Of a stretch of 64,000 nucleotides of DNA, positions 2,827-62,598 are shown in pieces; within the stretch, counting starts at the first letter, position 1, and each line of letters opens with the position of its first letter. Below the pieces are notes generated by a model. The model was not told where the DNA came from, did no database searches, and saw only the letters and a list, made by a program, of their open reading frames with translations. Made by a program: the position numbers and the translations under genes. The stretch is from Enterobacteria phage vB_EcoM_IME540. Location of the stretch: the sequence record MT150133.1. One strand, given 5' to 3'.

Positions 2827-3399
2827 TCAACTCGTTATTTCTATCCAGTGCTTCCTGCACAATGACACGTAAGAATCGTTGCCACCTATAGAAACTTGGG
2901 CTCCGTCCTTAATTGCGATACCATCTTGGATACGAGCCGTCATAGTAGCTTTACGGCCGCAATGGCACACACCTTTGTACTCAACGAGTTTATCTGCCGT
3001 AGCGAGTAATTCAGCAGAGCCAGGAAACAGTTTACCCTGAAAATCAGTTCTTAGCCCATAACACATAACTGGAACATTATAATTGTCTACTATCTTCGCC
3101 AGTTGTTTTATCTGTGCAGGTTCTAAGAACTGTGCTTCATCCACAAATACACAGTGGATATCTTTTTGAGATTCAGCCCAACGATAGAACTCGTATAGGT
3201 CCATATCCGGAGTCACGGCATTAGCCTCTTGACTAATCCCTATACGAGACGAAATGCTATGGCTTGATTCTCTATTGTCTACCGCGGGCTTTAAAAGGAG
3301 TACGCCCATACCACGTTCTTTGTAGTTATGAGCTGCCGTTAGCAATGAAGCGGTTTTCCCGGAATTCATCGCCGCATAGTGAAACATCAAGCTTGCCAT
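2827..3399 (-). CDS. tk: thymidine kinase
   Basis: 190 aa. P-loop MNSGKTASLL, VFVDEAQF, and a C-terminal Cys cluster CHCGRKAT...SLCRKH. Matches the T4 Tk pattern and position. Confidence 0.92.
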   Translation of the reverse strand: MASLMFHYAAMNSGKTASLLTAAHNYKERGMGVLLLKPAVDNRESSHSISSRIGISQEANAVTPDMDLYEFYRWAESQKDIHCVFVDEAQFLEPAQIKQLAKIVDNYNVPVMCYGLRTDFQGKLFPGSAELLATADKLVEYKGVCHCGRKATMTARIQDGIAIKDGAQVSIGGNDSYVSLCRKHWIEITS

Positions 3400-4124
3400 T
3401 TAAATACAACTCCTCTATAAGAGCAATTAGGATAACCTTTGCTTATAGCTATCTTTTTAAACATATATGCTGAAGGCTTATTGGATTCTTCCCATAAGAG
3501 TTTTAATTCATCGTAAAATTTCCAAGATTCGTTTCTTATAGGAGAAGGTTTTCCTGCCATAGCGCCCTTTTTACCGTACATGGGATTCTTTTTGCCCTTT
3601 TTGGCGTTACTCATATTTTCTATGGTTTCAGCGCTATGTTTAAATCCTTTTAATTTTTTAGAGGCTAATCCTATTTTAGCTTTATGCTCATCACTAAATC
3701 CTATTCTATTGGAATAATGGTTTAAACCTTTATTAGAAGTGGTGAATTTAGAAGCTTCTATTCTGGCTTTGCTCCATTTAACTCCTTTTCTAGACCTAGA
3801 CATTTTCTGTTTAGTTAAATTAGATAATTTGGTTCCTTTCTTTTTACCTCTTCCGCCATCAGCAAAATTTAAAGAATGCTTACCATATTTTAATTTAGCC
3901 TTTTCAACTAAAGGAATTTCGGCGGCATACGCCTCTTCTTCAGATTCGAAGAATTCTAATATACGAGTTTTATAAGGATGCTTTTTACAAATATTTTTAA
4001 CTACCGTACCACTTCCATAATACCCGTCTGAAAGATTATCAGTGGAGTGTTTACCTACATAGTAATAATTTGCCTTATGGGTTTTTATTACAGTCAAGTA
4101 ATTATAATGGAATTCCTTTGCCAT
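3387..4124 (-). CDS. GIY-YIG family homing endonuclease (Seg-like)
   Basis: N-terminal NYLTVIKTHKANYYYVGKHS...GYYGSG (GIY-x10-YIG type). Lys-rich NUMOD-like repeats (SDEHKAKIG..., SAETIENMSNAKKGKKNPMYGKKG). Overlaps the tk start by 13 nt. Confidence 0.75.
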   Translation of the reverse strand: MAKEFHYNYLTVIKTHKANYYYVGKHSTDNLSDGYYGSGTVVKNICKKHPYKTRILEFFESEEEAYAAEIPLVEKAKLKYGKHSLNFADGGRGKKKGTKLSNLTKQKMSRSRKGVKWSKARIEASKFTTSNKGLNHYSNRIGFSDEHKAKIGLASKKLKGFKHSAETIENMSNAKKGKKNPMYGKKGAMAGKPSPIRNESWKFYDELKLLWEESNKPSAYMFKKIAISKGYPNCSYRGVVFKWQA

Positions 4125-4133
4125 ATTACCTTC

Positions 4134-4325
4134 TTAAAGCGTATTCACATAAGCTATTAATTCGTTTTCTTTCTCATCAAATCGATTGACAAATTCTTCC
4201 TGATGTTCGGGAGATAGCGGGCCATATTCATCATAAAAAGAATTTGCTTCTGCATGCTCATCTAGAAGTTCATGGATAAGCTCAAACAATTTATCTTTCT
4301 GTTCTTTACTCAGACTCATAACCAT
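4134..4325 (-). CDS. hypothetical acidic helical protein
   Basis: Track ORF 4134-4340. The likely start is the ATG at 4325 or 4319; the latter forms an ATGA overlap with the upstream stop. Start uncertain. Confidence 0.5.
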   Translation of the reverse strand: MVMSLSKEQKDKLFELIHELLDEHAEANSFYDEYGPLSPEHQEEFVNRFDEKENELIAYVNTL

Positions 4326-4528
4326 TGTACCTTTAAGCAATATTCTTCTACATGCTGCTTACGTTTATTTTTATCTATAAAAGTATATTCAACATATTCA
4401 CCGATATACCATTTATCGGTGTTGTGTTGACTTTTTATAGGGCATTTAGTTACTCGGGTTTCGGACCAGTGTCGAATAATTTCCGCTTTATTTTTAGGGT
4501 CAAACGGATGCGGGTAATGGGCTTTCAT
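4316..4528 (-). CDS. hypothetical protein (70 aa)
   Basis: Track ORF overlapping the 3' end of the macrodomain gene by 29 nt. Confidence 0.5.
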   Translation of the reverse strand: MKAHYPHPFDPKNKAEIIRHWSETRVTKCPIKSQHNTDKWYIGEYVEYTFIDKNKRKQHVEEYCLKVQWL

Positions 4529-4967
4529 AATCTACCACCACTAAATTAATATCAGGAGTAAACAAATTAATCAATTGGTAAACCTTGTCCCAATCACCAC
4601 CAGCAATACCACAACCGATGCGAGGAATATAAATTCTTGGTTTAAACAAAAGACCTTTTGCTTGTTGATTTAATTCTATCATACAGTTTACTAAAGCACC
4701 GTAATCAAGATTAGGGCCTGGTTCGTATTGGGTGTATAAATTATAGCAAATTTGGCCCTTATTACCTGTGGCTTGAGTAAACGTGCCAAGTTTTTCCAAA
4801 TGGCCTAAATAAGTGGTTTTATCGATAGCGAGAATAGGCGGATAAGCCTTAGCCAATTGCCCAGCTACACCTGAACCCATTGTGTGGAAACAGTTACACC
4901 CGTGTGCAACATTATTACCTTGAAGAAATAGGGCGACAATATCGCCCTTAATATAATCAATAATCAT
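4500..4967 (-). CDS. macrodomain protein, TARG1/OARD1-like ADP-ribose binding/hydrolase
   Basis: 155 aa. HGCNCFHTMGSGVAGQLAKAYP and IPRIGCGIAGGDWDKV parallel the recalled human TARG1 motifs H-C-x-x-D-x-x-MGAGIA and PRIGCGLDRLQWENV. Sits where T4 tk.4 lies. Confidence 0.65.
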   Translation of the reverse strand: MIIDYIKGDIVALFLQGNNVAHGCNCFHTMGSGVAGQLAKAYPPILAIDKTTYLGHLEKLGTFTQATGNKGQICYNLYTQYEPGPNLDYGALVNCMIELNQQAKGLLFKPRIYIPRIGCGIAGGDWDKVYQLINLFTPDINLVVVDYESPLPASV

Positions 4968-6597: not shown

Positions 6598-7056
6598 TCA
6601 CAAGTAAATTACTTTCGTGCTGGTTTTACCTTCTAAACGTTTAGAGTTAACAAATGCCATACGACATTTAAGGGAATATCCTTTATCAGGATGTTTACGG
6701 TCTACTGTCATACCTAGCCATAAGGTTTTATCGGTAATTTCGAGACGCAATGGCCGATACACTTTACCAGGGACAATTTCGGATTCTACATCAGGCAGAG
6801 GTTCCTGGATTAAGAATTCATGGATTTCTTTAACATGGTTATGGAGTTGCTTGAATAAAGCAAAAACGTATTTTTCGTCGATTTCACGTTGGATAGCACG
6901 GTCCAACAAGTGGTTAGAGTACTTAATAAAGAAGGCTGGGACTCCGCTCTTAATGGCGGCTTTTTTGATGGACGTATTCAGTTCACGGAATTCGGTTTCG
7001 AACTGACGACGTAATTTATTGCGGCGGATGAATACTTCTGAATTAATTTCTGACAT
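6598..7056 (-). CDS. regB: RegB site-specific endoribonuclease
   Basis: 152 aa. MSEINSEVFIRRNKLRRQFETEF...LLDRAIQREIDEKYVF...YRPLRLEITDKTLWLG matches recalled T4 RegB (153 aa) throughout. Confidence 0.9.
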   Translation of the reverse strand: MSEINSEVFIRRNKLRRQFETEFRELNTSIKKAAIKSGVPAFFIKYSNHLLDRAIQREIDEKYVFALFKQLHNHVKEIHEFLIQEPLPDVESEIVPGKVYRPLRLEITDKTLWLGMTVDRKHPDKGYSLKCRMAFVNSKRLEGKTSTKVIYL

Positions 7057-7063
7057 TTTGTAA

Positions 7064-7106
7064 TCTCCTGTAGTTGATAGGTCTATAGTACCACGTCTAC
7101 AGGAGA
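7064..7106 (-). promoter_or_regulatory. 10-bp inverted repeat pairing the promoter spacer with the regB Shine-Dalgarno
   Basis: Minus strand TCTCCTGTAG (just after the -35) ... CTACAGGAGA (SD, 7 nt before the ATG). The loop holds the -10 and the start site. Confidence 0.7.
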
Positions 7107-7113
7107 TGTAAAC
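7085..7113 (-). promoter_or_regulatory. early promoter (GTTTAC -17 nt- TGGTACTAT)
   Basis: GTTTACATCTCCTGTAGACGTGGTACTATAGACCTATCAAC upstream of regB, with the conserved 15-mer. Confidence 0.75.
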
Positions 7114-7117
7114 TGCT

Positions 7118-7327
7118 TTATTCTTGGAATGGGGTAAGTTTTCCAGCAGCTGAACAAATTTCTACCAGTACAGGGTAAAACTCTTTCACTTGTTCAAGGC
7201 GTTGGGCTGCATACTGTACTTCACCTTCTTCGAGACAAGCCATTTGGTCGTCAAGCAAGTATTTGTGGTAGCCAGTACAGGCTTCACCGATGATACGCTG
7301 GAAATCTTGTAAACTTTCAATTTTCAT
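7118..7327 (-). CDS. hypothetical protein (69 aa)
   Basis: Track ORF trimmed to the ATG at 7327, which forms an ATGA overlap with the upstream stop. Confidence 0.55.
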   Translation of the reverse strand: MKIESLQDFQRIIGEACTGYHKYLLDDQMACLEEGEVQYAAQRLEQVKEFYPVLVEICSAAGKLTPFQE

Positions 7328-8793: not shown

Positions 8794-9093
8794 TTAGAAA
8801 GAACCAGAACCTCTAATTGTGTTCTGGCGACCTTTATTTTCTAATTCGGAGTGGTCGATTTCATATGCTTGTGCTACGCCAAAGGCCTTTTTAACTTTAG
8901 CTAAAGAACCTTTAGATGTAACAATATTAAAAGTATTACCTTTGGTAAAATCAACAAAATCGACTTGTACGCCCTGTTTACCGAGGCTTGCTACAATAGC
9001 ATCAACATATTCTTGGTCTAAATTGCCTTGAACTCCAATTTGAAATGCTTTAGGAGCTTTGGCTTCTGTGATAAATTCTTGATAAGTTTTCAT
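8794..9093 (-). CDS. internal head protein (IP) with capsid-targeting sequence
   Basis: The N-terminus MKTYQEFITE|A matches the T4 IP capsid-targeting sequence (MKTYQEFIAE) with the gp21 cleavage context. 99 aa. Confidence 0.75.
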   Translation of the reverse strand: MKTYQEFITEAKAPKAFQIGVQGNLDQEYVDAIVASLGKQGVQVDFVDFTKGNTFNIVTSKGSLAKVKKAFGVAQAYEIDHSELENKGRQNTIRGSGSF

Positions 9094-9118
9094 TGTTATT
9101 CCTTAAGTTGATAGAAGT

Positions 9119-9148: not shown

Positions 9149-9553
9149 AGCCTTGCCATAATGTTTGTACCAGGTAGGACGCTGTGCAATTTTTTCATCC
9201 AAACGGGTCTGAGATATAGCAATAGAAGCTTCGTGTGGAGTATAGTCACCACGGAATTCCTGAGGAATGCCACTAATGTCCTGGACAGTAGTATCCTTGA
9301 TATTAAAACCACGTTTTAAACATTCGGCTATAAGCTCAATTTGTCGCTTACGTAAAAATTCAAGCTTATCGTAAAAGAATGTAACATGGCCTGTGCCAAG
9401 GATAAAAGTAGGACTGATTTTGAAATCACGGACACGTTTACCATTAGCAACATGCTTACGAACTGCACCGAAAACACGTGGTAATTCACGATATTCAGCC
9501 ATTAAGTGTTGGTCGGCCAATTCAGATACTAAGGTAAGGTTGATACGAGTCAT
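9137..9553 (-). CDS. denV: endonuclease V (pyrimidine-dimer DNA glycosylase)
   Basis: 138 aa, as in T4. [28 protein letters not shown]...[13 protein letters not shown] closely matches T4 DenV. Confidence 0.95.
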
Positions 9554-9559
9554 TTTTTA

Positions 9560-9602
9560 ATCTCCTGTAGTTGATAGGTCTATAGTATCATGCCTACAGG
9601 AG
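9560..9602 (-). promoter_or_regulatory. 10-bp inverted repeat pairing the promoter spacer with the denV Shine-Dalgarno
   Basis: Minus strand GTTTACA-TCTCCTGTAG-GCATGATACTATAGACCTATCAA-CTACAGGAGA-TTAAAAAATG. The arms are perfect. Confidence 0.7.
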
Positions 9603-9609
9603 ATGTAAA
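9581..9609 (-). promoter_or_regulatory. early promoter (GTTTAC -17 nt- TGATACTAT)
   Basis: Conserved 15-mer present. Drives denV. Confidence 0.75.
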
Positions 9610-9610
9610 C

Positions 9611-10009
9611 TTATTTATAGGTTTTCATCCAATTCTTGAACAAAGCTGCGACGTCTTTCTCTTTAACGTTCAGTTTAACGTCCAACATTTTACCACCGGC
9701 AGCACGTGTCTGACGAATCTTAGCAGTACCGGTTTCGCCATTCCACTCAACATAATACTGTCCGGTGTTCATTGCAATACCGTCGCCGTAGTCTTCATTT
9801 TTAGAAGTGGTGAATGCCAGCTTCATAGTCTTAGATACACGAGCCTGCATGCCTGTCTGAAGGGCATTACGAACGCGAATAACCTGAGGAGTGGCCTGGG
9901 TCAGGTTTTCATTCAGTTCTTCAGTGAACTCTTCAGATTCAAACATCGCCAAAAGTTCTTTAGATGCAGGAATTACATTCTCTGCGATAAATTCATTATA
10001 AGTTTTCAT
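9611..10009 (-). CDS. internal head protein (IP) with capsid-targeting sequence
   Basis: [10 protein letters not shown]|NV... 132 aa. Lies between e and denV, where T4 has ipIII/ipII. The body is unrelated to the other IPs in the window. Confidence 0.7.
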
Positions 10010-10490
10010 ATGCTTTCCAAGTACCTGTTTTAAATGTGGAAATCACGCGCTTAGCACGATTAGGAGTTTGTTTATACCAACGGGATTGAGCCAGGTTAAC
10101 TGCTGCATCATCCCAACGTTTTTGCTGAAGCATACGCAGAGAGTTAGTGAACCCTGCTACGCCTGCTTCACCCATTTGGAAGACCATGTTAATTAAAGCA
10201 CAACGACGAACTTCGTCCAGTACATCATAAACAGGTTTCAATTTAGGATTACGCAGAATAGCTCTACGAGCATTTTCAACCGACCGGTTAAAGAGTTGTT
10301 CGGCTTCAGCCATAGTAATACGACCATTGCAAACTCGACCCATAAGCTTATCAAGTTCAGCCCGAGCAACATCTTTAGAAGGATTCTTAGTAATCAATTG
10401 GCCAATACCAATAGTATAGTATCCCTCAGTATCCTTATATAAGTCTAATTTACAGCCTTCATCAAGGCGTAACATATCAAAAATATCCAT
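9996..10490 (-). CDS. e: endolysin (T4 lysozyme)
   Basis: 164 aa, as in T4. [30 protein letters not shown]...[27 protein letters not shown]...[20 protein letters not shown]. Confidence 0.96.
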
Positions 10491-12705: not shown

Positions 12706-12742
12706 TTTATTCTCCATTTCACTCTGTTGTTTTGATAGGTCT

Positions 12743-12771
12743 ATAGTATCACACCTATAGACCTTGTACAC
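12743..12771 (-). promoter_or_regulatory. early promoter (GTGTAC -17 nt- TGATACTAT) with 10-bp palindrome
   Basis: Minus strand GTGTACA-AGGTCTATAG-GTGTGATA-CTATAGACCT-ATCAAAAC. Arms lie at 12737-12746 and 12755-12764. Confidence 0.65.
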
Positions 12772-12783
12772 TGTTTTGTGCAA

Positions 12784-17719: not shown

Positions 17720-17983
17720 TTATTTCATATTATTGAAATAATTTTCTGCATCAAAATCATTACCATGGTAAACTTTGGTAGACGATTTGGCGTAACCTTC
17801 AGCTGAGAACATATTAATCACAACTTTAATTGTATACCACTGTCCATCTTCATTACCCATTACTGCATAGGTTTCATACACCGGGTGTTCAGGACCGATA
17901 ACCTTAATATCGTTAACTGTGGCACCAAATTCTTCCGGAACGCATTTCATAAAGAAATTAAACACTTCACCATAATTATCCAT
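17720..17983 (-). CDS. hypothetical protein (87 aa)
   Basis: Track ORF starts at a GTG; trimmed to ATG 17983, which is preceded by GGAGAGTAAA. Confidence 0.55.
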   Translation of the reverse strand: MDNYGEVFNFFMKCVPEEFGATVNDIKVIGPEHPVYETYAVMGNEDGQWYTIKVVINMFSAEGYAKSSTKVYHGNDFDAENYFNNMK

Positions 17984-18018
17984 TTTACTCTCCTTCACTC
18001 TGTTGTTTTGATAGGTCT

Positions 18019-18047
18019 ATAGTATCATGTTTAAAGGAGGTGTAAAC
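18019..18047 (-). promoter_or_regulatory. early promoter (GTTTAC -17 nt- TGATACTAT)
   Basis: Conserved 15-mer present. The spacer CCTCCTT is complementary to the downstream SD AAGGAG. Confidence 0.7.
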
Positions 18048-18068
18048 ATCTTTTTTAAACTTTTAGAA

Positions 18069-18098
18069 ACAAAAAAGGCCCAACCTTTCGGAAGGGCC
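18069..18098 (-). terminator. rho-independent terminator (copy 1 of a 30-nt direct repeat)
   Basis: Minus strand GGCCCTTCC-GAAA-GGTTGGGCC followed by TTTTTTG, after the stop of ORF 18104-18658. Identical 30-mer at 18692-18721. Confidence 0.75.
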
Positions 18099-18103
18099 GT
18101 GAA

Positions 18104-18658
18104 TCAGTTCTTGTAGAACCGGAACGGGTTTATGTGGAAGGCTAACATAGCCTTAGGGATTTTACGAGACAAAAGACTCTTAAGTTTCCAACCACAGTAC
18201 ACGCGAAGGTAAAAGGTAATTCCACCTACTTTAAGATACGGAACCGAAGCAAAGACTCCCCATGCTTCATCATTCCACATCCATAACCAACCATGGTGAG
18301 CTTTATCAGGAGAACCAGATTCTACATCAGGATTACCGCGATAATGGAATTCTGAACTACAATCACGTCCTAGTTTATGATAAGCAAAGTTATAAGCTTT
18401 ATTTCGCCATAGCCAAGCTACTCTCTGGAGGTAAACACCACCAGGCATTTTCCTGATTTTAGCCCAACGTTTAATATGACCTTTGTCGCCATCAATTGGA
18501 TTATCGTATGTCATCATCCAATCAAAGCCATAAGGCAATTTACCGGTCTTTTTATTGTAGAAAGGAACTACAAAAGGCGCAAGGATAACGGCTAGAACCA
18601 TAGAGATAAAATCCAGCGGGACCAACAGAATCCAACTCAAATATTTTAAAAGTTTCAT
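18104..18658 (-). CDS. membrane-anchored protein (184 aa), apparently late-expressed
   Basis: N-terminal TM helix LSWILLVPLDFISMVLAVILAPFVVPF and a Trp/aromatic-rich body. Preceded by TATAAATA and flanked by identical terminators. Confidence 0.6.
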   Translation of the reverse strand: MKLLKYLSWILLVPLDFISMVLAVILAPFVVPFYNKKTGKLPYGFDWMMTYDNPIDGDKGHIKRWAKIRKMPGGVYLQRVAWLWRNKAYNFAYHKLGRDCSSEFHYRGNPDVESGSPDKAHHGWLWMWNDEAWGVFASVPYLKVGGITFYLRVYCGWKLKSLLSRKIPKAMLAFHINPFRFYKN

Positions 18659-18684
18659 ATTATTTCCTAAGTTAGTTTACTACA

Positions 18685-18692
18685 TATTTATA
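18685..18692 (-). promoter_or_regulatory. late promoter TATAAATA
   Basis: Exact motif on the minus strand, intergenic, 27 nt upstream of ATG 18658. Confidence 0.55.
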
Positions 18693-18721
18693 CAAAAAAG
18701 GCCCAACCTTTCGGAAGGGCC
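18692..18721 (-). terminator. rho-independent terminator (copy 2 of a 30-nt direct repeat)
   Basis: Same 30-mer acaaaaaaggcccaacctttcggaagggcc (plus-strand text). Ends the tRNA-Arg/noncoding transcript. Confidence 0.75.
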
Positions 18722-18952
18722 TTTAACCTAGGGTAACCTTGTCGGGGTTCCACCTGCTAGGCAAGTGTTCGGTGCGCCGTTTCAGCTGTGATAGTAAAGA
18801 GCCAGAACACAGTAAAACTGTGGGAGGAACTATACTCCAGGGAACATCAGTCCGACGACTTACCGGTAGCGACCCGGTTTCTTGTTTGGTGCGCCGGTGA
18901 ATGCTGGTAATCAGTCTTCATACGACGGCTTGACTATATAATAGTCTTCATT
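18722..18952 (-). ncRNA. candidate stable small RNA(s) downstream of tRNA-Arg (positional analogue of T4 rnaC/rnaD)
   Basis: 231 nt with no credible ORF, relatively GC-rich, between the tRNA-Arg 3' end and a strong terminator. Carries the duplicated motif CGGCGCACC(A/G)AAC, a duplicated ATGAAGACT and several hairpins. Homology not verified. Confidence 0.4.
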
Positions 18953-19027
18953 TGGTATCCCGCCCTGGGATCGAACCAGGACCGCAAACTTAGAAGGATC
19001 GTATGCTATCCATTACACCAGCGGGAC
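18953..19027 (-). tRNA. tRNA-Arg (anticodon UCU), CCA encoded
   Basis: GTCCCGCTGGTGTAATGGATAGCATACGATCCTTCTAAGTTTGCGGTCCTGGTTCGATCCCAGGGCGGGATACCA. The cloverleaf folds by hand: 7-bp acceptor stem, T arm CCTGG-TTCGATC-CCAGG, anticodon loop CTTCTAA. Confidence 0.9.
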
Positions 19028-19032
19028 GTAAT

Positions 19033-19698
19033 TCAAAATTTTATTTTACGGCCTTTATTCCAACCTTCAGGAATAATATCCGTTTTGTTAATACGTTTAG
19101 AAACTTTTTCTTCTAAAGAATGAATCCACATTTTTCCATATCCGGAATTATTTTCACCTTGTTGGTGTTTATTTCTGGCGTGAGATTCTTTCATTTTATT
19201 TTTGGTTTCATCTGAATGGGTCTTACCCAAGAAAGATTTAGTATTTGAAAATTTCTCTCTATACTTAGGATTATCCCAAAGTTGTTTAAACCTTTCCGAA
19301 CCCATTTTACGATATTTTTCTTTAAGGTCTGGGTCGTTCTCAAATCTGGTTTTAAAAGCGGCAACTCCTTTTAAGGAAGCTTCTTTCTTTTTATCTAAAT
19401 ATTCTTCAGTGTTTAAATGGTCCCAACCACCTTCACCACCTAATTTCAAATTATAAACATCAGGGCGCTTTAAAAACTCTTCAGTCACAATATTCTTTTC
19501 TGACTCAAACATAGAGGTTTTATCGTCAAAGAACTCTAATATTTCTTTAGAGAAATTTTCTATACCGTATTTGACCTGGGCCCTTTTTAAGAGTTTACCA
19601 GAACCAAAATATGCATCATTCAAATTTTCGGTTGAATGGGCGCCTATATAGATTTTATTATTAATTTTGTTTGTTATTTTATAAGTGTAATGGAACAT
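19033..19698 (-). CDS. segB: GIY-YIG homing endonuclease, SegB-like
   Basis: 221 aa. MFHYTYKITNKINNKIYIGAHST...FGSGK (GIY-YIG) plus NUMOD-like basic repeats. Sits between tRNA genes, as T4 segB does. Confidence 0.75.
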   Translation of the reverse strand: MFHYTYKITNKINNKIYIGAHSTENLNDAYFGSGKLLKRAQVKYGIENFSKEILEFFDDKTSMFESEKNIVTEEFLKRPDVYNLKLGGEGGWDHLNTEEYLDKKKEASLKGVAAFKTRFENDPDLKEKYRKMGSERFKQLWDNPKYREKFSNTKSFLGKTHSDETKNKMKESHARNKHQQGENNSGYGKMWIHSLEEKVSKRINKTDIIPEGWNKGRKIKF

Positions 19699-19739: not shown

Positions 19740-19810
19740 TGGCCCTGGGTGGAATCGAACCACCATCCAGCGATTATGAGTCGCTCGCTTGACCGTCCAG
19801 CTACAGGGCC
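19740..19810 (-). tRNA. tRNA with anticodon CAU (elongator Met, or Ile if lysidine-modified)
   Basis: GGCCCTGTAGCTGGACGGTCAAGCGAGCGACTCATAATCGCTGGATGGTGGTTCGATTCCACCCAGGGCC(A). 7-bp acceptor stem, anticodon stem AGCGA/TCGCT with loop CTCATAA, T arm GGTGG-TTCGATT-CCACC. CCA not encoded. Confidence 0.85.
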
Positions 19811-21140: not shown

Positions 21141-21176
21141 TTTATTCTCCAATCACTCATTTGTTTTGATAGGGCT

Positions 21177-21206
21177 ATAGTACCATCACTAAAGCCCGTT
21201 GTAAAC
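21177..21206 (-). promoter_or_regulatory. early promoter (GTTTAC -18 nt- TGGTACTAT), variant 15-mer
   Basis: Minus strand GTTTACAACGGGCTTTAGTGATGGTACTATAGCCCTATCAAAAC. Short inverted repeat GGGCT/AGCCC. Confidence 0.6.
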
Positions 21207-21208
21207 AA

Positions 21209-21481
21209 TTATTTTAAATAAATTGCATATTTTTTATAACCAGCCGTCTCGTGGCGCAGCCCTTTTTCATTAGCAAAACGTTCAATATTGTTAATTTGAT
21301 TCTGGTCGAGTTCTGAAGTATCAAATACAAAAAAGTTTCGCTTATTGCCTAAAGTTACGTGATTAGTCAAATCGATGTTATAGAGATGATTTATATTATC
21401 AATCATGGTCTTAACAGATTTGTTAATTTTTACTTCTTCATTAAGAATAGATTCAGCGATAAATTCTTGGTATGATTTCAT
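21209..21481 (-). CDS. internal head protein (IP) with capsid-targeting sequence
   Basis: MKSYQEFIAE|SIL... 90 aa. Starts 1 nt after the stop of the upstream IP gene. Confidence 0.7.
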   Translation of the reverse strand: MKSYQEFIAESILNEEVKINKSVKTMIDNINHLYNIDLTNHVTLGNKRNFFVFDTSELDQNQINNIERFANEKGLRHETAGYKKYAIYLK

Positions 21482-21482
21482 T

Positions 21483-21707
21483 TTATTCAGCGCCAGCAGC
21501 TTTCAAAAGTTTTTTAAGATTGGCTATGCCGCCAGCAGAAAACGTGACCTTGCCACCTTTTTCATTGATAGAGCCAGTCAATTTAGCAAGCTTATCACTA
21601 GGGACTTTTTTAAAATCAGCCAGTGTGCCATCAAAGGTTTTTGTAACAATTGGCAGTTCATCTTCATGTCTTTTAGCTTCGGTGATAAATTCTTGATAAG
21701 TTTTCAT
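21483..21707 (-). CDS. internal head protein (IP) with capsid-targeting sequence
   Basis: MKTYQEFITE|AKRHEDE... 74 aa. Sits where T4 ipI lies, next to 57B. Confidence 0.7.
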   Translation of the reverse strand: MKTYQEFITEAKRHEDELPIVTKTFDGTLADFKKVPSDKLAKLTGSINEKGGKVTFSAGGIANLKKLLKAAGAE

Positions 21708-21744
21708 TTTGATTTCCGTTTGGTTAGTTTGTTTTGATAGGTCT

Positions 21745-21773
21745 ATAGTATCATGCCTATAGACCTTGTAAAC
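21745..21773 (-). promoter_or_regulatory. early promoter (GTTTAC -17 nt- TGATACTAT) with 10-bp palindrome
   Basis: Minus strand GTTTACA-AGGTCTATAG-GCATGATA-CTATAGACCT-ATCAAAAC. Arms lie at 21739-21748 and 21757-21766. Confidence 0.7.
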
Positions 21774-21784
21774 AACTTTTTAAA

Positions 21785-25195: not shown

Positions 25196-25203
25196 TATAA
25201 ATA
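25196..25203 (+). promoter_or_regulatory. late promoter TATAAATA (gene 53 rightward)
   Basis: Exact motif, intergenic, 28 nt before ATG 25231. Confidence 0.75.
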
Positions 25204-25210
25204 TTAATAT

Positions 25211-25218
25211 TATTTATA
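25211..25218 (-). promoter_or_regulatory. late promoter TATAAATA (genes 4-2-3 leftward)
   Basis: Exact motif on the minus strand, 26 nt before ATG 25185. Back-to-back with the plus-strand promoter. Confidence 0.75.
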
Positions 25219-42241: not shown

Positions 42242-42249
42242 TATAAATA
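42242..42249 (+). promoter_or_regulatory. late promoter TATAAATA (gene 13)
   Basis: Exact motif, intergenic, 21 nt before ATG 42271. Confidence 0.75.
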
Positions 42250-56902: not shown

Positions 56903-56931
56903 TTTTAATCTCCTCATGTTTTGATAGGTCT

Positions 56932-56961
56932 ATAGTAACATGTGAGAATCTTGCTGTAAAC
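56932..56961 (-). promoter_or_regulatory. early promoter (GTTTAC -18 nt- TGTTACTAT)
   Basis: Conserved 15-mer TACTATAGACCTATC present. Interleaved with the plus-strand late promoter of gene 24. Confidence 0.7.
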
Positions 56962-62576: not shown

Positions 62577-62584
62577 TATAAATA
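62577..62584 (+). promoter_or_regulatory. late promoter TATAAATA (uvsW)
   Basis: Exact motif, intergenic, 28 nt before ATG 62613. Confidence 0.7.
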
Positions 62585-62590
62585 TAACTA

Positions 62591-62598
62591 TATTTATA
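62591..62598 (-). promoter_or_regulatory. late promoter TATAAATA (inh-hoc leftward)
   Basis: Exact motif on the minus strand, 34 nt before ATG 62557. Back-to-back with the uvsW promoter. Confidence 0.7.

Follow-up and report, generated by a model that had tools for sequence, protein, structure and literature searches.

Promoter-early stem-loop (PeSL) elements are mobile regulatory cassettes of T4-type phages, described by Arbiol et al. 2010 (PMC2839356) and Comeau et al. 2014 (PMC4122927), in which non-essential open reading frames (ORFs) of hyperplastic regions are flanked by short repeated regulatory elements, each made of a stem-loop terminator and, right behind it, a strong sigma70-like early promoter. 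In RB49 and phi1, where PeSL-flanked ORFs of one phage are matched by a lone PeSL in its sister, inverse PCR revealed mini-circles (PMC2839356); PeSL shuffling was extended to the pairs PST/T4 and nt-1/KVP40 (PMC4122927). Comeau et al. 2014 (PMC4122927) make no mention of the phages JS98 and JS10, Arbiol et al. 2010 not having been checked for these names. The present analysis deals with a 64,000-nucleotide stretch of Enterobacteria phage vB_EcoM_IME540 (MT150133.1), hereafter the window, and more precisely with a gene of the DUF7338 family which, on the minus strand between positions 18,069 and 18,721, is bracketed by two identical copies of a 30-nt terminator and preceded by a predicted T4-type late promoter. 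This slot works like a PeSL cassette, with a late promoter in place of the early one.

According to our preferred reading, to which we assign a probability of about 75%, the 623-bp unit made of the terminator, the octamer TATAAATA, its leader and the DUF7338 ORF is a portable regulatory-plus-coding cassette, residing in a hyperplastic slot between tRNA/rnaD/rnaC and e.8. It offers a clean natural case of accessory-gene swapping in T4-type phages: filled as well as empty alleles are known from two loci, in two genera; the breakpoints between presence and absence fall inside the repeated 30-nt terminator, and the ORF takes its promoter and leader along. The PeSL shuffling model is thereby extended from early-promoter elements to terminator-plus-late-promoter elements, by which late accessory genes would be movable with their timing intact. 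The gain is incremental rather than conceptual, the mechanism being already published and the protein family being catalogued but uncharacterized.

The unit is built up from the following features:

18692..18721, minus strand: upstream copy of the 30-mer, intrinsic terminator of the tRNA/rnaD/rnaC unit; a hairpin plus U6, orthologous to the rnaC terminator of T4-type phages
18685..18692, minus strand: predicted T4-type late promoter TATAAATA, an exact octamer abutting the U-run of the upstream terminator
18663..18668, minus strand: Shine-Dalgarno-like AGGAAA, as read from the sequence, in a 26-nt leader conserved in relatives
18104..18658, minus strand: 184-aa ORF (Pfam DUF7338 / phrog_2143), with a membrane helix at the N-terminus and, after it, a compact alpha/beta domain rich in Trp
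18069..18098, minus strand: downstream copy of the 30-mer, terminator of the cassette; a hairpin plus U6, in a PeSL-like composite with the e.8 early promoter

The likeness to PeSLs holds in several respects. A single element occupies the empty site of sister genomes (vB_EcoM_FB and vB_SalD_ABTNLS3, or ATK48 as compared to the Mosigvirus LF82-16), several related copies are distributed in hyperplastic regions (two exact terminators and eight early-promoter cassettes in the window, two to four terminator places in relatives), and recombination between the flanking elements, possibly releasing mini-circles, is proposed here as it is for PeSLs. The downstream copy (18098-18069), followed by an A-rich segment and by TTTACA-16-TACTAT (18046-18019), is a PeSL in all but name. 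The upstream copy, however, is followed by the late promoter TATAAATA and not by a sigma70 early promoter, and the shared repeat consists here of the 30-nt terminator only, a copy of the conserved terminator of the rnaC/tRNA unit.

An earlier, sequence-only reading of this stretch had called the arrangement moron-like. Morons, a concept of Hendrix and Juhala, belong to temperate lambdoid phages; they were defined in prophages, are typically expressed from the repressed prophage and often display a deviant base composition. Like a moron, the slot contains one additional gene that has a promoter and a terminator of its own, lodged between two backbone genes and absent from close relatives. It differs in that the host genome is that of a virulent T4-type phage of the Tevenvirinae, outside any prophage or lysogenic state, with a predicted late lytic promoter and an unremarkable GC content. 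The term is thus the wrong category for a virulent phage, for which the PeSL cassette represents the established analogue.

The repeated terminator and its filled and empty sites

The 30-mer ACAAAAAAGGCCCAACCTTTCGGAAGGGCC occurs exactly twice in the window, at 18069-18098 and 18692-18721; the identity ends at 30 nt and the flanks of the two copies differ. No further copy with up to 3 mismatches occurs in the window, nor in any of 100 shuffles. On the minus strand each copy folds into GGCCC-uu-CC-gaaa-GG-uu-GGGCC followed by U6, i.e., the GC-rich hairpin and U-run of an intrinsic terminator, with folding energies of -15.3 and -17.9 kcal/mol (z-scores of -2.1 and -3.0). Exact search and folding thus agree with the sequence-only reading, which had seen in each copy a minus-strand hairpin with a T-run. 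A generic promoter/terminator scan reported neither copy, because of the U-U internal loop in the stem, and folding and covariation were relied on instead. Among 12 terminator variants collected from eight phages, every stem pair is kept (100% of cells paired) and compensatory double changes occur at two stem pairs (G-C to C-G and G-C to A-U), while shifted-register controls collapse, 12 variants being a small sample.

The upstream copy is the resident conserved terminator of the tRNA/rnaD/rnaC unit, since it directly follows the conserved rnaC 3' flank (ACACTTGCCTAGCAGGTGGAACCCCGACAAGG) and an equivalent stem-loop follows the same flank, at the same place, in Tequatrovirus. It shares with the T4 terminator the GAAA-loop stem and U-run, the stem varying mainly by compensatory changes. 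In the Tequatrovirus RB3, however, the terminator is single and no gene intervenes (rnaC, GCCCCGACCGAAAGGTTGGGGC-U5, a spacer of about 130 nt, early promoter, e.8), whereas it is duplicated here, with a late gene between the copies. The upstream terminator is therefore not a private part of the cassette, as had been supposed. Terminators of the rnaC type are kept in hundreds of Tevenvirinae records, at two to four places per genome in relatives, one of them between uvsW.1 and uvsY.-2. In IME281, an exact third copy of the 30-mer ends the uvsY.-2 unit at that place (1501-1530 of the retrieved locus), about 43 kb from the slot. Such a third copy is a feature of some Dhakaviruses; the window yielded none.

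With respect to relatives, the full-length megablast matches of 17900-19100, among 589 phage records matched, belong to Dhakavirus (JS98-like, Straboviridae, Tevenvirinae), with 92-96% identity. When the right flank of the window, a single repeat copy and the left flank were joined into a synthetic empty-site query, two Dhakaviruses were retrieved, vB_EcoM_FB and vB_SalD_ABTNLS3. Both genomes pass without interruption, and without alignment gaps, from the rnaC flank through one identical terminator and the A-rich segment to the early promoter and e.8. The window thus equals the empty site of these two phages plus exactly one 623-bp repeat unit. Relatives with or without exactly one repeat unit plus the ORF were the comparison which the sequence-only reading had proposed, and its outcome favours recombination between terminator copies.

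Eight relative loci were compared by blastn and junction reading. Read 5' to 3' on the minus strand, from rnaC to the e.8 early promoter, the slots are organized as follows:

MX01 and LQ5: order identical to that of the window
JS98 and AnYang: terminator, late promoter, DUF7338, terminator, second TATAAATA, 205-aa gene, different terminator
WG01: terminator, late promoter, 154-aa homologue of the JS98 205-aa gene, another terminator, DUF7338 lacking its own late promoter, terminator
IME341: WG01-like order, but only a remnant of DUF7338, 17 nt from its start joined to about 52 nt from its end; both flanking terminators kept
VR5: e.8 deleted; a GCCC microhomology joins DUF7338 to about 25 nt from the 3' end of the second gene of the JS98 type, with the terminator of that gene
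VR20 (Gaprivervirus): on the upstream side a terminator variant with compensatory changes, then TATAAATA; on the downstream side an unrelated terminator

The ORF without the duplicated terminator, or with other junctions, was the finding that the sequence-only reading had named as contrary to it, and VR5, VR20 and WG01 literally show such layouts; yet the exact empty sites support that reading. We regard the layouts of VR5, VR20, WG01 and IME341 as secondary rearrangements of a hyperplastic slot and not as a refutation. The order of DUF7338 and of the second slot gene (phrog_2280; JS98 orf135, WG01 orf139) is swapped between JS98 and WG01. This second gene begins with MKTYNEFL(N/T)E (3208-3825 and 2305-2769 of the retrieved loci); it weakly matches an 'internal virion protein' PHROG and may encode an internal head protein. 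The internal deletion of IME341 (1755-1830 of the retrieved locus) represents a natural DUF7338 knockout allele.

A second locus occurs in Mosigvirus. In LF82-16, a DUF7338 gene 74% identical to that of the window lies in the vicinity of tk, immediately past the antiholin gene rI, in the order rI, GCCCCTTCCGAAAGGTTGGGGC-U5 terminator, TATAAATA at -32, DUF7338, the same stem-loop and an early promoter. A query made of this filled site was covered to at least 80% by 23 of the 195 matching records; the two-piece matches to the region, among those listed, span 978 bp versus 1601 bp, a difference of 623 bp. In ATK48, aligned with LF82-16, the flanks are joined by a single terminator and the boundaries of the difference fall inside the resident terminator. 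A synthetic 141-nt junction of the Mosigvirus empty site was covered to at least 80% by 132 records, i.e., at least 132 empty sites. The idea that terminator, late promoter, ORF and terminator form a unit gained or lost by recombination is thus also supported by presence and absence at a different locus, downstream of rI.

Depending on the allele, the terminators of this second locus differ in their loop, which reads TTAT in the resident terminator of the empty site and GAAA in both terminators of the filled allele, as in the rnaC terminator, which in the closely related Mosigvirus LF82-3 consists of the same GCCCC...GAAA...GGGGC element. Because the filled-allele loops are GAAA and the resident loop TTAT, the Mosigvirus pattern points to the import of a terminator-bounded unit, probably from an rnaC-type context. 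A simple single crossover of the Campbell type with the resident Mosigvirus terminator was rejected as a full account, since it would leave one TTAT copy and both copies are GAAA.

Regulation, mechanism and rival explanations

The octamer TATAAATA shares the last base of the repeat and ends 26 nt before the ATG at 18658; the sequence-only reading had placed it at 18685-18692, 27 nt from the ATG. It displays the sequence features of a late promoter, with TATAAATA at -10, no -35 element and a suitable distance to the gene, and its position is kept in eight relatives of three genera (JS98, LQ5, MX01, AnYang, WG01, VR5, VR20 and the Mosigvirus copy). The window contains 20 copies of the octamer versus 7.6 expected. 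The plus strand of the window has further composites of a terminator and TATAAATA, at 42242 and 49379, so this is a general design; what sets the slot apart is the identical terminator pair bracketing one gene. In the Mosigvirus LF82-3, TATAAATA and a predicted late gene of 208 aa, beginning with MYTFNE, come directly after the rnaC terminator (440-560 of the retrieved locus); a terminator-plus-late-promoter composite is thus conserved across genera where the tRNA unit ends, while the gene behind it varies. Back-to-back TATAAATA pairs, 7-8 nt apart on opposite strands, also occur in the window at 25196-25218 and 62577-62598; each box is located 25-33 nt from an ATG, as in apparent divergent late promoters.

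Two features, the conserved TATAAATA and the upstream terminator, suggest that the DUF7338 gene is expressed late. According to established T4 transcription biology, the upstream terminator would block read-through from the early/middle tRNA unit, TATAAATA would recruit the gp55-RNA polymerase late in infection and the downstream terminator would insulate the region of the e.8 early promoter. With terminators on both sides and TATAAATA, the gene would thus be timed on its own. Homologous recombination of the phage between the short terminator copies would delete the unit, possibly as a mini-circle by analogy with PeSL elements, and the same recombination could place the unit at any resident terminator sharing its stem arms.

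Several points weigh against this portable-cassette reading. Only 30 nt of homology are available for recombination, and the mini-circles are proposed by analogy; late timing and terminator efficiency are predicted from consensus motifs. In VR5, VR20, Karamvirus, RB43 and the Felix O1-like phages, the terminators around the gene are different ones or missing, and the DUF7338 copy of WG01 has no promoter of its own. The Mosigvirus insertion calls for a two-ended patch, a later gene conversion or an unsampled recipient of the GAAA type; the stem arms shared for such a patch measure 10 and 15 nt, and patch and conversion are not distinguishable here. The Dhakavirus slot is compatible with gain as well as with loss, and loss by repeat recombination would be enough.

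This last point leads to a rival explanation by loss only, in which the cassette would be ancestral at the rnaC/e.8 slot and prone to deletion through its duplicated terminator, without having ever been inserted or being mobile. Deletion between direct repeats fully explains the empty sites of vB_EcoM_FB and vB_SalD_ABTNLS3, the gene occupies the same slot in Dhakavirus, Gaprivervirus and apparently Gelderlandvirus, and IME341 and VR5 illustrate its decay by deletion. Such a history nevertheless seems unlikely to us: the Tequatrovirus RB3 has the slot without the gene, the gene order relative to the internal-protein-like gene is swapped in the way described for JS98 and WG01, and the unit of Mosigvirus resides at a different locus, as a minority state (about 23 filled versus at least 132 empty) with rnaC-type GAAA loops indicative of import. 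It is still harder to believe that the two terminators are independent and resemble each other through selection for termination, the indels resulting from unrelated illegitimate events in which the repeat had no recombinational role. The composites at 42242 and 49379, the same 30-mer at the end of the uvsY.-2 unit of IME281 and the deletion of VR5, which took place at a GCCC microhomology and not between full repeats, could be taken in this sense, but selection leaves unexplained an identity of 30/30 that includes the non-structural ACAAAAAA tail, as well as the position of the indel boundaries, both of which lie exactly inside the repeat, at two loci and in two genera, with one copy left intact.

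The portable-cassette reading can be pushed further, to a speculative and rather doubtful extension according to which terminator-plus-late-promoter elements would be the actively mobile late-gene counterpart of PeSLs. The unit would be excised as a circle of about 0.6 kb, re-enter terminators with matching stem arms and carry a conserved periplasm-facing effector of unseen fold between hyperplastic regions and genera, this effector being the long-missing lysis or exclusion function of the Felix O1-like phages, in which the gene is located within the tRNA array.

The DUF7338 protein and its possible functions

The 184-aa product, with 10 Trp residues and a net charge of +15, is hydrophobic from about residue 6 to residue 34, in keeping with the N-terminal transmembrane helix and Trp-rich body noticed in the sequence-only reading. 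The family, which that reading did not recognize, is recognizable as Pfam DUF7338 (E = 2e-63, 213.7 bits for a cut-off of 27, model positions 1-179 of 180) and as phrog_2143, over its full length (E = 3e-80). Length, N-terminal helix and the motifs TxDNPxDGD, WLWRNxxYNF and GWKLK are shared with the family and nothing separates the protein of the window from it; the family itself has no assigned function and no solved structure. No mention of DUF7338 was found in the literature. A foreign composition of the gene was considered and rejected (ordinary GC of 0.39-0.41, as in the surroundings).

DUF7338 is widely distributed among myoviruses, with 592 phage records found by tblastn, among them Dhakavirus, Gaprivervirus, Gelderlandvirus, Mosigvirus, Karamvirus, Pseudotevenvirus (RB43, RB16), Klebsiella T4-like phages, Felixounavirus, and myoviruses of Pseudomonas and Aeromonas. 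The T4-like and Felix O1-like proteins share about 60% identity. A profile search of 1.84 billion representatives yielded 983 DUF7338 clusters at 50% identity; nearly all of the 150 members listed are single-domain proteins of about 160-220 aa, and no informative domain fusion was seen among these 150, one member of 288 aa being left unexamined. The invariant residues are P28, T50, D52, W82, R85, N86, Y89, G97, R152, G156, W157, K158 and P178. A confident AlphaFold2 model (pLDDT 95.4, pTM 0.84) starts with a helix of 32 residues, continues with several short helices and has an antiparallel sheet at its C-terminus. Owing to its wide distribution, to a confident predicted fold without solved relative and to the natural knockouts available for comparison, DUF7338 represents a tractable target.

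Some neighbourhoods of the gene deserve a mention. In a Chitinivorax prophage, DUF7338 is the last gene, after a tail fibre and its chaperone, at the prophage edge, and in one metagenomic phage contig it directly follows a glycine-rich gene of the tail-fibre type; the neighbourhoods of three metagenomic members are mostly uninformative, and the tail-fibre adjacency seen in two cases is a lead only. In the Salmonella phage GEC_vB_B1 (Felixounavirus), the gene is located inside a tRNA array, between tRNA-Leu and tRNA-Gln (4001-4558 of the retrieved locus), so that adjacency to a tRNA cluster recurs in two unrelated groups of myoviruses, Felixounavirus and Dhakavirus, where the gene lies just after the tRNA/rnaC unit.

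As for its orientation, the charges flanking the membrane helix were crudely counted in 176 representatives by the positive-inside rule; they average +2.1 net on the N-terminal side and -0.3 on the C-terminal side (156 cases versus 1), which weakly suggests an N-in, C-out membrane anchor. We tentatively consider the product as a type II (N-in, C-out) protein anchored in the inner membrane, with its conserved Trp-rich domain in the periplasm, which may act on the envelope late in infection. This proposal is weakened by the lysine and arginine counts, which taken alone barely differ across the helix (2.2 versus 1.7), and by the fact that no PDB match to the AlphaFold model, nor any structural or sequence relative of known function, was found.

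Modification of the receptor or of the envelope, or exclusion, seems likelier than hole formation. T5 Llp and Cor of phi80 and N15 are late receptor-blocking or exclusion proteins encoded beside tail-fibre genes. The functional analogy, which is to be taken as a lead only, concerns small envelope proteins and the position of DUF7338 after tail-fibre-type genes in one prophage and one metagenomic contig; in contrast, Llp and Cor are lipoproteins and have no sequence or fold relationship to DUF7338.

A lysis protein, be it a holin similar to class III or a factor that regulates the timing of lysis, appears an improbable alternative to such an envelope or exclusion factor, in spite of a number of suggestive observations. 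One N-terminal hydrophobic helix (residues 6-34 or so) followed by a large C-terminal domain is the topology of T4 holin T; the gene has a predicted late promoter and adjoins the antiholin gene rI in Mosigvirus, and several records label homologues 'holin'. In addition, the Felix O1-like phages, all of which carry DUF7338, have no identified holin, neither in the Felix O1 genome paper (PMC3185647) nor in later announcements (PMC6486253). Nevertheless, the 'holin' labels are guesses from topology without experiment behind them, the protein shows neither Phage_holin_T homology nor a fold similar to the solved periplasmic domain of T or to any solved protein, and its invariant polar residues T50, D52, R85, N86, R152 and K158 are more typical of a binding or catalytic site. 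Furthermore, the gene is lost or truncated in the close relatives IME341, vB_EcoM_FB and vB_SalD_ABTNLS3, and is thus dispensable in nature.

Genomic surroundings of the slot

The local genes are located on the minus strand, in the order tRNA-Met, GIY-YIG ORF, tRNA-Arg, rnaD/rnaC-like stretch, upstream 30-mer, TATAAATA, 184-aa ORF, downstream 30-mer, early promoter and e.8. Apart from the unit itself, they comprise:

19810..19740, minus strand: tRNA-Met, upstream in the tRNA cluster
19698..19033, minus strand: GIY-YIG/NUMOD3 homing-endonuclease ORF (seg-like), between tRNA-Met and tRNA-Arg
18953..19027, minus strand: tRNA-Arg(UCU), last tRNA of the cluster upstream of the cassette (ARAGORN; Rfam tRNA 48.8 bits)
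18722..18952, minus strand: rnaD/rnaC-homologous stretch of 231 nt, in the unit ended by the upstream terminator (blastn matches under the rnaC/rnaD features of RB68, RB3 and T2L)
18019..18046, minus strand: sigma70-type early promoter of e.8, TTTACA-16-TACTAT with an extended TG, one of eight near-identical cassettes
17720..17983, minus strand: e.8 homologue (phrog_2678; annotated as e.8 in JS98, MX01 and WG01), first gene past the cassette and right-hand anchor of the slot
1684-1751, 7054-7121, 9551-9618, 12712-12779, 17988-18055, 21153-21197, 21714-21781 and 56921-56937, all minus strand: early-promoter cassettes (GTTTACA..TGATACTATAGACCTATCAA plus leader)

An Rfam scan detected two tRNAs only, no family covering the stretch 18722-18952. 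The rnaD and rnaC genes of T4, to which this stretch is homologous, encode stable RNAs (species 2 and 1 RNAs) whose role is so far unknown. The GIY-YIG/NUMOD3 ORF is present in AnYang; JS98, MX01 and VR5 are devoid of it and their tRNAs are closer together.

Eight near-identical sigma70-type early promoters (GTTTACA...TGATACTATAGACCTATCAA) form a family that drives the surrounding genes; all are on the minus strand and seven occur in the first 22 kb of the window, in agreement with the sequence-only reading, which had described the region as otherwise early. Two of the eight cassettes are preceded by a strong stem-loop (near 1780 and at 18098-18069) and are thus PeSL-like. In some of them, at 7054 and 9551, an inverted repeat (CTCCTGTAG...CTACAGGAG) brackets the -10 element.

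Finally, a repeat family occurs at 9058-9100, 9974-10016, 21446-21488 and 21672-21714 (plus-strand coordinates, the genes being on the minus strand), as the reverse complement of ATGAAAACTTATCAAGAATTTATC.., which encodes MKTYQEFI... This peptide resembles the capsid-targeting sequence of T4 internal head proteins, and several such genes are present in the early region.

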